A stretch of 64,000 bases of DNA from Iphione sp. A-MEVVRFRX5 (Eukaryota): assembly GCA_976226885.1 (NCBI GenBank), contig OZ320319.1, positions 49,910,001-49,974,000 on the forward strand, given 5' to 3'. Below the pieces are notes generated by a model that worked only from the letters and a program-made list of their open reading frames with translations, searched no databases and was not told where the DNA came from. Position numbers and translations under genes: made by a program. The first letter of the stretch is position 1. Every line of letters begins with the position of its first letter. Of this stretch, positions 6,614 through 9,560 are shown piece after piece.

Positions 6614-7370
6614 TGGAAAATCTTCATGCAGGTCACTCCAAGGTACTGGAAAAAAGAAAGAAATAAATAGTATTAAATAAGTGTTAAGATTCATAACTGA
6701 CACTGGAAAAGAGAATAAATATACATATTCCTTTATGAAGCTGTCAGGGAACATGTATTTCATTGGAACTCAGAATAAAAGGTGCAAGATGACCAAAAAC
6801 GTCTCCCAATGATTTTTGAAAAAATTGTGTGGGTTAAATAATTTTTTTTCGTCATGTAATTCCGTTAATATTACATCTTAATTTAAAAAAAGTAGTTACA
6901 TATTAAAGTAAATAAGAGAATGATCCTTACGCTTAATCTGTCTGGTTTCTTATGGCGCCTGTCTGGAAAATCTTCATGCAGGTCACTCAAAGGTACTGGA
7001 AAAAAGAAAGAAATAAATAGTATTAAATAAGAGTTAAGATTCATAACTGACACTGGAAAAGAGAATAAATGTACATATTCCTTTATGAAGCTGACAGGGA
7101 ACATGAAAAATTATTTCTTGTATTTCATTGGAACTCAGAATTAAAGGTGCGAGATGTAAACATACATTAGAAAGTCTTATATATATATATATATATATAA
7201 CCAAAAACGACTACCAATGATTTTTGAAAAAATTGTGTGGGTTAAATAATTTTTTTCGTCAAGTAATTCCGTTAATATTACATCCTAATTTCAAAAAAGT
7301 AGTTACATATTAAAGTAAATAAGAAAATGATCCTTACGCTTAATCTGTCTGGTTTCTTACGACGCCTGTG
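6614..7370 (-). repeat. Duplicated exon/intron units (about 350-410 bp)
   Basis: CTGGAAAATCTTCATGCAGGTCACT...GTACTGGAAAAAAGAAAG at 6614 and 6963. The KPDRLS plus GTAAGG donor block occurs at about 6925 and about 7335. Confidence 0.8.
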
Positions 7371-9560
7371 TGATCTTGGAACACCAAACTCATCATAACT
7401 TGACGCAGTTGACTCCGAGTCGCTATCCAGAGCATGGAGGGGAATATCTTGGAAGTCGCCCTGCCTGCTACCGACACCCGATGGGCCAGGAATGGGATCA
7501 ATAATTGCTGATGCTGCTACCTGCCTGCTAGCGACACCCGATGGGCCAGGAATGGGATCAATAATTCCTGATGCTGCTGACTGCCTGCTACCGACACCCG
7601 ATGGTCCAGGAATGGGATGAAGAATTGCTGATGCTGCTGACTGCCTGCTACCGACACCCGATGGTCCAGGAATGGGATGAATAATTGCTGATGCTGCTGA
7701 CTGCCTGCTACCGACACCCGATGGTCCAGGAATGGGATGAAGAATTGCTGATGCTGCTGCTGACGTTACAACTTTTGAAGCCCCTGAACCTTGACGGATT
7801 CTAACAGTAATGGGACCGGGAATTGGACGTGGTCTCACTGTGAATGATGTAGGTAGTTTTTTCCCTCGGACATGAGATGGGGCAGGAATCAGATTTAGTA
7901 AAACTGGAGTAACAAAACTGGGGTCCGGCACTGGAGCTGTTGATGGTGGTTCTTCACGAGCTAGGACGCCGTCATGTGCATCAGCGTCTGTGTTACCCTC
8001 GTCAGTCGGTCTTGTAGGAGTTGCATGTTCCGGAGCTGGGAGAGGAAGCGGACGACGTTGTTCATTGCGCCGCGCCCTCTCTATAAGGTGTAAATCGAAC
8101 AGCTCATCTTCAGTTGGACCTCTTGGTGTATTTTCATACATGGGGTTGCTATAAACTACCACATCACTGAAAAGACCAGAATGCAATTCCAAAAGTGAGT
8201 TAACTGAACAAACATATATGCATGACATATTTATATGAGGAGTGACTTTTTATTTCAGTTAGCTCAATCCATCAAGAATTTATATGTTCTATATGATTTA
8301 TATGATTTTGGTATCTGTTTTTTGAAAAGAGTTAGCGAAATAAGATCAAGTATGTCTCATGGCAGGGATTGTCCAATTTTGGATATATAAGAGATCATGG
8401 TTTACTAATTTTTTAATGGTTAGAAAAGATAGAAAGTGGGGTATTACTGACCGTCTGTTTTGCTGTCGTCGCAGTTCCACCAGTTCCACAAGTTCATTTA
8501 GGATATTTCGTCCATCCGCGGGACATGTACATCTGTTTCCTTTACGAATGACATATGTCAAAACACTCAGGGCCGCAACCAGTAAAATGGTTGAACCACC
8601 AATTATTAATCCTAAAGCTGTCTGACTGATATAGGGTTCTTGGGAACTTAAGTGGCGGATCGGAATCATTACCGTGGGGTTCGGTAGGGTAACCCGAACA
8701 TATCCATCTTCTGGCTCCTCATCCACTGTGATAGTTCGAAACTTGGACTCTTCTTTTTCTGATCCGGTCACGGAACTTGCTGTATTAGTAGTGGTCGATG
8801 ATACCTTCAAATATGATGTATCCATCGATGAAACTAATGTCGGTTCTTCTTCTTCTTCTTTGCACTTGGACAATGTCAGCGACTCGCTTGTTTCTGACAT
8901 AGATAGGGTTGTCGACGTTGTGTCTATGTTTTCTCGAGTCTCCAGTGTAAGACTAGCAGTAAAAGTCACATCCAACATTGAATCTTTCGATGCACTTGGA
9001 CTAATACCTTCATACGTTTTATCACTTGTGATGCTAACAGTACGCTCAGTTAAGGTGCCAGTGGATACAATCGATCCATCGTTATCTCCAGACAACTTAT
9101 CAACATTAACCGTAGTAAGAGGGACATCAGCGATGGGAATATTCGTTGTCATATCTCCGCTAACACTACTTCCTAAGGGAGTAAGATCAGTGCGTGACAC
9201 TGACGTTGATTCCCTTACCACACTTGCATCCAATGTTGTAGGACACGTAGCTGTAGCTGCCAGGAGGCTGTTTAAAATTGATGCATCAGTACCACGAATA
9301 CCCTCCAGATCAGGAAATATCGTCATTAAATGTGCGGCAATTTGCTGAAGATGGTCTTCAATAATGACACGATGCAGGTACAAGTACTTGATTCCGTAAT
9401 GGCGTTGATGGACGCTGAGTAGATAGATGGCCGGGATGACAGAACAGTGTACTCTATCCTCCAAACACACGCACTTAACGCATAACTCATTACTCCTAGT
9501 AGTTGAAAAGACAAATATCAGCACAATAAATGTGCCTATTGAAATCCTCAAACAATCCAT
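7338..9560 (-). CDS. Type I membrane receptor-like glycoprotein: signal peptide, LRR-NT-like Cys cap, Ser/Thr stalk, TM, spliced long cytoplasmic tail (exons 9560-8452, 8166-7338, further exons unresolved)
   Basis: Signal MDCLRISIGTFIVLIFVFS; LCVKCVCLEDRVHCS; TM ALGLIIGGSTILLVAALSVLTYVI. A phase-2 GTCAGT donor (8451) and TTTTCAG acceptor (8167) join it in frame to ORF 7278-8228. Confidence 0.65.
7460..7760 (-). repeat. Coding tandem repeat, 5 x 60 bp (SAASAIxHPIPGPSGVGSRQ)
   Basis: CTGCCTGCTACCGACACCCGATGG recurs every 60 nt. Confidence 0.95.

Follow-up and report, generated by a model that had tools for sequence, protein, structure and literature searches.

A conserved, probably spliced membrane-protein gene of Iphione Polintons whose tail may reach chromatin

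A conserved and probably spliced membrane gene is carried by a Polinton in the 64,000-nt stretch of Iphione sp. DNA analysed in this work (the window, in which all positions below are counted). Its anatomy is well supported; the predicted product is a 648-aa type I membrane protein, and the gene may connect the membrane with chromatin instead of mimicking a phosphotyrosine receptor. The reading adopted here is that the surface protein is a membrane-tethered precursor whose tail is released and binds nucleosomes. It is put forward tentatively, at somewhat below an even chance, and is favoured over a nuclear-envelope tether, a pair of LRR decoys and an NPxY/SH2 mimic.

The gene lies within the following element.

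903–25930, strand not assigned: Polinton/Maverick holding the gene, about 25 kb, collinear with sister copies.
903–1056 and 25791–25930: terminal inverted repeats, 74 % alike in the window copy, degenerate.

A Polinton origin had been proposed in an earlier note on this DNA and was borne out by the terminal inverted repeats and core genes. The gene sits between these repeats together with integrase, ATPase, protease, capsid and polymerase genes: Pfam identified an integrase-chromodomain protein and, below the curated cut-off, an A32-type ATPase and an adenain/Ulp1-type protease. The capsid-type and polymerase ORFs, both split in the window copy, were named from what we take to be the usual Polinton layout; a capsid search returned 12 relatives (31–45 %) without context, plus one weak viral locus. 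The element also encodes a NADAR-domain protein (16853–17503, minus strand, E 4e-19). Its terminal gene (3313–3612 and about 3775–4461, plus strand) also looks spliced, with a donor sitting exactly where the first ORF stops and a polypyrimidine acceptor ahead of the second, and is conserved in many families; the first part is presumably similar to PC4-type ssDNA-binding proteins. Repeat arrays of ~130 nt and ~245 nt (4833–5360 and 5828–6320) separate the terminal gene from the membrane gene. Outside the Polinton, the window holds an element of Ty3/gypsy type (about 37471–57795, minus strand) that carries an envelope gene resembling baculovirus F and, at 44839–49652, several short related accessory ORFs.

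Besides the window copy, the 1.18-Gb genome contains 14 complete or nearly complete copies at 90–94 % identity, together with one copy in two pieces, one at 82–86 % and one fragment. Matches to the N-terminal head of the protein numbered at least 150 and fell into many subfamilies. When 40 homologous loci were sampled across these head subfamilies, a Polinton protease, capsid or terminal gene was found within the fetched stretch at 39, so the homologues keep company with Polinton genes and a captured host pseudogene is very unlikely.

The predicted gene structure is as follows.

8452–9560, minus strand: coding part of exon 1, running from the signal peptide and Cys-rich head through the Ser/Thr stalk and membrane span to a juxtamembrane CxC and an LxELxEL-type helix.
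8167–8451, minus strand: intron 1, phase 2, 285 nt, with donor CG/GTCAGT at 8451 and acceptor TTTTCAG/ at 8167.
7338–8166, minus strand: exon 2, low-complexity cytoplasmic tail of 276 codons (copy alignment and dN/dS).
6996–7337, minus strand: intron 2, phase 0 (donor and acceptor conservation).
6987–6995, minus strand: predicted coding part of exon 3, encoding Tyr, Leu and stop (Tyr codon behind the acceptor across families).

The window sequence itself presents an ORF at 9560–8346 and a second frame at 8249–7278, which the earlier note had joined through a phase-2 intron (8451–8167). This junction held in an alignment of 17 copies (the window and 16 others out of 20 loci, partial and overlapping loci being left out), in all of which the donor and acceptor of intron 1 were invariant. 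Among the 16 other copies, exon-1 indels were multiples of three in 15, the exception being one 1-nt deletion, and exon-2 indels were multiples of three except in one copy cut by its locus end, whereas intron 1 carried frame-shifting indels in all 16 (with ~880 extra bases in one). The ATG of ORF2 was in frame in three of the 17 copies and lost in 14, and the read-through of ORF1 into intron 1 differed in length between copies. Further afield, a phase-2 donor closed exon 1 in 17 of the 19 distant loci examined, and among 16 distant loci whose tails had a motif, only eight showed a phase-2 acceptor that passed the filter.

Position 7338, previously taken as the end of the gene, is instead a donor of phase 0, which 17 other loci keep at the same place directly after PxRLx, and is followed by the predicted micro-exon at 6995–6987. 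The Tyr codon opened the first or second listed acceptor downstream of 7338 in 12 of 13 clade-1 families and was met only at the fifth listed acceptor in the thirteenth; use of an alternative acceptor 57 nt earlier than 6995 would give a protein end without Tyr. Besides this third exon, the previous description had lacked the basic motif conserved at the C terminus, the partner gene on the opposite strand and the inverted repeat between leader and coding sequence. The three exons sum to 648 codons. In the window copy the end of exon 2, intron 2 and the start of exon 3 are tandemly duplicated (6613–7372); most sister copies have one unit.

Pairwise dN/dS was 0.19–0.70 in the head, 0.57–0.73 in the stalk, 0.04–0.26 around the membrane span and 0.30–0.56 in exon 2. 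From conservation of the junctions, three-exon splicing is considered very probable. The competing view, of two unconnected ORFs or of a captured host pseudogene, would draw on the fact that the junction is deduced from conservation and on the degraded state of some copies; it is countered by the invariant splice sites, the frame-preserving exon indels, the loss of the ORF2 ATG, purifying selection and the adjoining core genes, and is rated highly improbable.

The description of the product as a mucin-like transmembrane protein was supported as to its topology. Hydropathy and conservation indicated an N-terminal signal peptide and a single membrane span followed by basic residues, as in a type I protein, and the stalk was 36 % Ser+Thr with no N-glycosylation sequon.

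8547–8615, minus strand: predicted single membrane span, residues about 316–338 (hydropathy).
9246–9491, minus strand: Cys-rich head, predicted to form a small and degenerate LRR domain outside the cell (alignment, model and structural match).

Just inside the span (about 8455–8545, minus strand), a CxC and a hydrophobic-x-E-hydrophobic-x-E helix were conserved in clade-1 families; the CxC is a possible palmitoylation site and the adjoining helix possibly of amphipathic or export type.

Alignment of 19 head sequences revealed five invariant cysteines, and the structure model (pLDDT 84) was alpha/beta. The best VIA match was to GPIb-beta (Z 5.1, rmsd 5.2, 77 residues aligned, below the tool's noise level of 8), and the other matches were mostly LRR proteins. 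The head had no Pfam match and no PDB sequence match, and its atlas scores were under 0.85. The ‘LRR cap’ of the earlier note is plausible, on weak fold support. The Polinton protein as predicted would share a Cys cap, a minimal LRR and a single span with GPIb-beta and GPIX (Z 5.1 and 4.9, both below that noise level), and differs from them in the stalk, in its long tail and in giving no sequence match. Proteins of the GPIb-beta/GPIX type act as a pair.

A word-indexed search found no head homologue outside this genome, and a HMMER search of 1.84 billion representatives gave just eight weak, partial, multi-stretch matches. Viral and metagenome contig searches returned no homologue, and BFVD nothing at E ≤ 0.001, the best row being a hytrovirus ‘possible surface protein’ (E 0.067). 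These negatives are weak evidence, because the collections searched hold few animal transposon proteins. A class III fusogen of the MFUS-1/gB kind did not fit, the protein having a folded head of ~85 residues and then a low-complexity stalk, not a large beta-rich ectodomain. As to the Ig-like CR1 domains of adenovirus E3, no Pfam family matched the ORFs or heads, and the model was alpha/beta.

Next to the gene, on the opposite strand, lies a divergent partner.

10102–11020, plus strand: partner gene, coding for a signal peptide, a mini-LRR head of TLR type, a Ser/Thr stalk and a membrane span, and carrying a splice donor.

The partner frame is broken in the stalk in the window copy and open in a sister copy. 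Its head profile matched TLR3 (E 2e-11 summed over repeats, the best single stretch having 19 bits) and its fold gave VIA Z 7.4 (rmsd 2.6, 80 aligned) and, in the atlas, a score of 0.95 with LRR proteins throughout. Both LRR consensus and LRR fold were found in the partner head, more clearly than in that of the main gene, and a profile comparison of the two heads reached only 39 % probability. For the partner profile (longer proteins only) no homologue was found outside this genome. The two genes stood head to head in all 93 matched loci; for each gene 150 hits had been listed, of which 105 and 93 entered the matching.

This fixed pairing and the TLR-type head of the partner favour a pair whose LRR heads act, in the manner of E3, as immune decoys or in superinfection exclusion, with the basic end of the tail serving only as a sorting, retention or phosphorylation signal. 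Such a function is rated unlikely; it leaves unexplained two motifs of acidic-patch type (RRSxR and YxLR) and a micro-exon kept for one Tyr.

Three elements were located in the tail.

8130–8153, minus strand: YSNPMYEN (NPxY and YxN), family-specific.
7461–7760, minus strand: five 60-nt repeats with IPGPSG, the unit number differing between copies.
7338–7379, minus strand: basic tail end RR[SP]xRxRRxPxRLx, in which Pro replaces the first Arg in the window copy.

The earlier note had placed NPxY, YEN and five IPGPSG repeats in the tail, and all are present in the window, VVVYSNPMYEN directly behind the intron 1 acceptor, but they proved to be family-specific and not conserved across clade 1. NPxY followed the acceptor in two of 15 clade-1 families, the window family and one other (~52 % head identity, same place). 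The NPxY codons were kept in 15 of the 17 close copies and read NPMF in the other two. NPFY occurred further downstream in two clade-3 loci, and one NPxY match in clade 2 fell outside the tail frame. YEN and the five IPGPSG units were confined to the window family, with one to three PGP[SA] in seven other families.

The main function first proposed, that of a receptor decoy at the surface with a tail that uses NPxY (PTB) and pYxN (Grb2-type SH2) for signalling or endocytosis, was not supported by this survey. Retention of the codons among close copies and in a second family, the downstream NPFY of clade 3 and the tail sorting motifs described for adenovirus E3/49K (PMC13437282) are in its favour. 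With NPxY absent from 13 of the 15 clade-1 families, YEN restricted to one and the basic end as the conserved element, it is regarded as distinctly unlikely.

Tails varied in length and sequence across families, from ~100 to ~1,100 residues, only the end being kept. Clade-2 tail exons at three loci (L086, L101 and L105) were 880–1,150 codons long and rich in Ser, Thr and Pro. Clade-1 tail ends (13 rows) had four invariant and three near-invariant columns, completed by the exon-3 Tyr, with Pro at the Ser position in three of the 13 rows. Among 11 clade-2 representatives, RRSxR was present in seven tail ends and YxLR in four; neither was found in the five clade-3 tails. In one family (L070) a YNLR motif also lies just ahead of the first donor (4370–4400 of that locus, plus strand). 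The integrase ORF of the Ty3/gypsy-type element in the window likewise ends in an R-rich motif that includes Pro and aromatic residues.

The clade-1 end, RR[SP]xRxRRxPxRLx/Y, resembles HMGN-type arginine anchors. The motifs of HMGN, Dsup and Dot5, which attach to the acidic patch of the nucleosome, have RRSxR as their core (PMC13347269), YxLR matches the Y537, L539 and R540 used by the chromatin-binding sequence of foamy virus Gag (PMC9040877, PMC6042332), and in CENP-C an arginine anchor is likewise accompanied by an aromatic residue further downstream (PMC5472775). The Polinton tails share with these anchors RRSxR or YxLR cores placed in disordered regions, a combination present by sequence except in clade 3; those proteins are soluble nuclear or capsid proteins, whereas the Polinton motif stands at the tail end of what is predicted to be a membrane protein. 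On this resemblance, binding of nucleosomes by the tail end is given a little short of an even chance. The absence of the motif from clade 3, Pro for Ser in three rows and loss of the first Arg in the window copy count against it, and the basic motif could just as well serve nuclear import or retention, or be a kinase site.

In the favoured reading, the small LRR-like head would face the outside of the cell on its Ser/Thr stalk, probably with the divergent partner. Loss of the ectodomain would presumably be followed by cleavage in or near the membrane, and the unstructured tail would then pass into the nucleus and attach to the acidic patch of the nucleosome by its terminal arginine motif. Alternatively, the protein may stay uncleaved in the ER or inner nuclear membrane, where the tail would import it and tether chromatin or element DNA to the nuclear envelope. 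A tail that ranges from ~100 to ~1,100 residues with only its end kept would suit such a tether, as would the precedent from yeast, where a disordered linker with an import signal targets proteins to the inner nuclear membrane. The Ser/Thr stalk, LRR-like head, juxtamembrane cysteines and, in some families, NPxY point instead to the Golgi and cell surface, and the tether is held to be unlikely.

The release reading has a further part in clade 1, which concerns an inverted repeat.

9587–9628, minus strand: 5′ arm, in the predicted 5′ leader, just behind a GCCATCTT site (GCCATnTT-type).
8658–8697, minus strand: 3′ arm, coding for PTVMIPI just ahead of the membrane span.

The GCCATCTT site is presumably a YY1-type core promoter motif. 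The 5′ arm likely lies in the leader, because this GCCATnTT-type site precedes it and the first ATG after it was the in-frame start (14 of 15 families). The ~40-nt arms, which lie about 900 bases apart, were complementary over 38 of 42 columns in the window copy, and the 3′ arm contained an in-frame ATG in 16 of 18 families. Across 42 loci, pairing was found in those of clade 1 and was absent from clades 2 and 3. Within the arm core, 258 of 288 cells paired across 18 clade-1 families, one of which failed (the 5′ arm of L072 was mis-registered, which slightly lowered the count). Nineteen double changes were seen at eight of the 16 pairs, a level reached in none of 10,000 shuffles, which ignore relatedness. 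The strand test was weak (G-U 16 vs A-C 6; sense duplex more stable in only 11 of 18), and Rfam gave one chance-level match only.

Pairing of the leader and coding arms as an RNA duplex in clade 1 is considered fairly probable, and a duplex closing a loop of ~800–1,400 nt is a better reading than DNA inversion. The arms could otherwise be recombination sites that flip the ectodomain on and off in the DNA: they flank it exactly, and gene conversion between them would give the same co-variation. No inverted ectodomain was present in the 93 matched loci, however, and most families retain a bulge of one base and mismatches of G-U type, so that flipping appears improbable. As part of the release reading, pairing of the 5′ leader with the sequence ahead of the span would tune the amounts of full-length and head-less protein, the ATG of the 3′ arm speculatively serving to start the latter. 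Its absence from clades 2 and 3, the one failing clade-1 family and the weak strand test count against this part.

The pieces may also be assembled into a relay like that of Notch or APP, in which the LRR pair senses an outside cue, the released tail controls the element or the host from nucleosomes and the RNA duplex acts as the switch to the head-less form. The duplex would loop out the whole ectodomain message, and the AUG inside the 3′ arm would start a head-less, cleavage-ready form. This fuller scheme is quite unlikely as a whole.

Among known systems, adenovirus E3 provides membrane glycoproteins in a non-enveloped virus, and E3/49K is the nearest working analogue: as described in PMC13437282, this type I glycoprotein, made by a dsDNA virus that has no envelope, combines a small folded head and a disordered region with sorting motifs in its tail, and it is shed. 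It has Ig-like CR1 domains and a 19-residue tail, in contrast to the LRR-like head and basic-ended tail of ~310 residues here. MFUS-1 of nematode Mavericks is, as presented in 10.1101/2022.07.12.499685, also a signal-peptide, single-span protein, and these Mavericks too have intron-bearing genes near a terminal repeat; MFUS-1 is an 866-aa gB-like fusogen, whereas the Polinton gene has no fusogen fold. Nematode Maverick cargo genes are described there as recent host captures, whereas the position of the Polinton gene is fixed across deep element families. Intact vertebrate Maverick genes are reported as intronless in PMC8097293, and the accessory genes listed for adintoviruses in PMC8502044 include PLA2X, GasderminX and cupiennin-like proteins. 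No such membrane gene is mentioned in the available parts of PMC11131425 and 10.1101/2025.04.19.649669. By title and abstract, the literature yielded no Polinton LRR/mucin membrane gene; the supplements of PMC8502044 may annotate related accessory genes.

The gene would thus represent a new variety of viral accessory membrane protein, with its anatomy read from sequence and its function proposed. A spliced LRR-type membrane gene pair fixed in all sampled Polinton lineages of one animal indicates that these elements have a region for host interaction like that of E3 and lead an active viral life. The co-varying leader/coding duplex would be an unusual cis-element, testable by simple reporters. 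If the tail does bind nucleosomes, it would offer a testable route by which an integrated Polinton could sense the outside of the cell and control its own induction.
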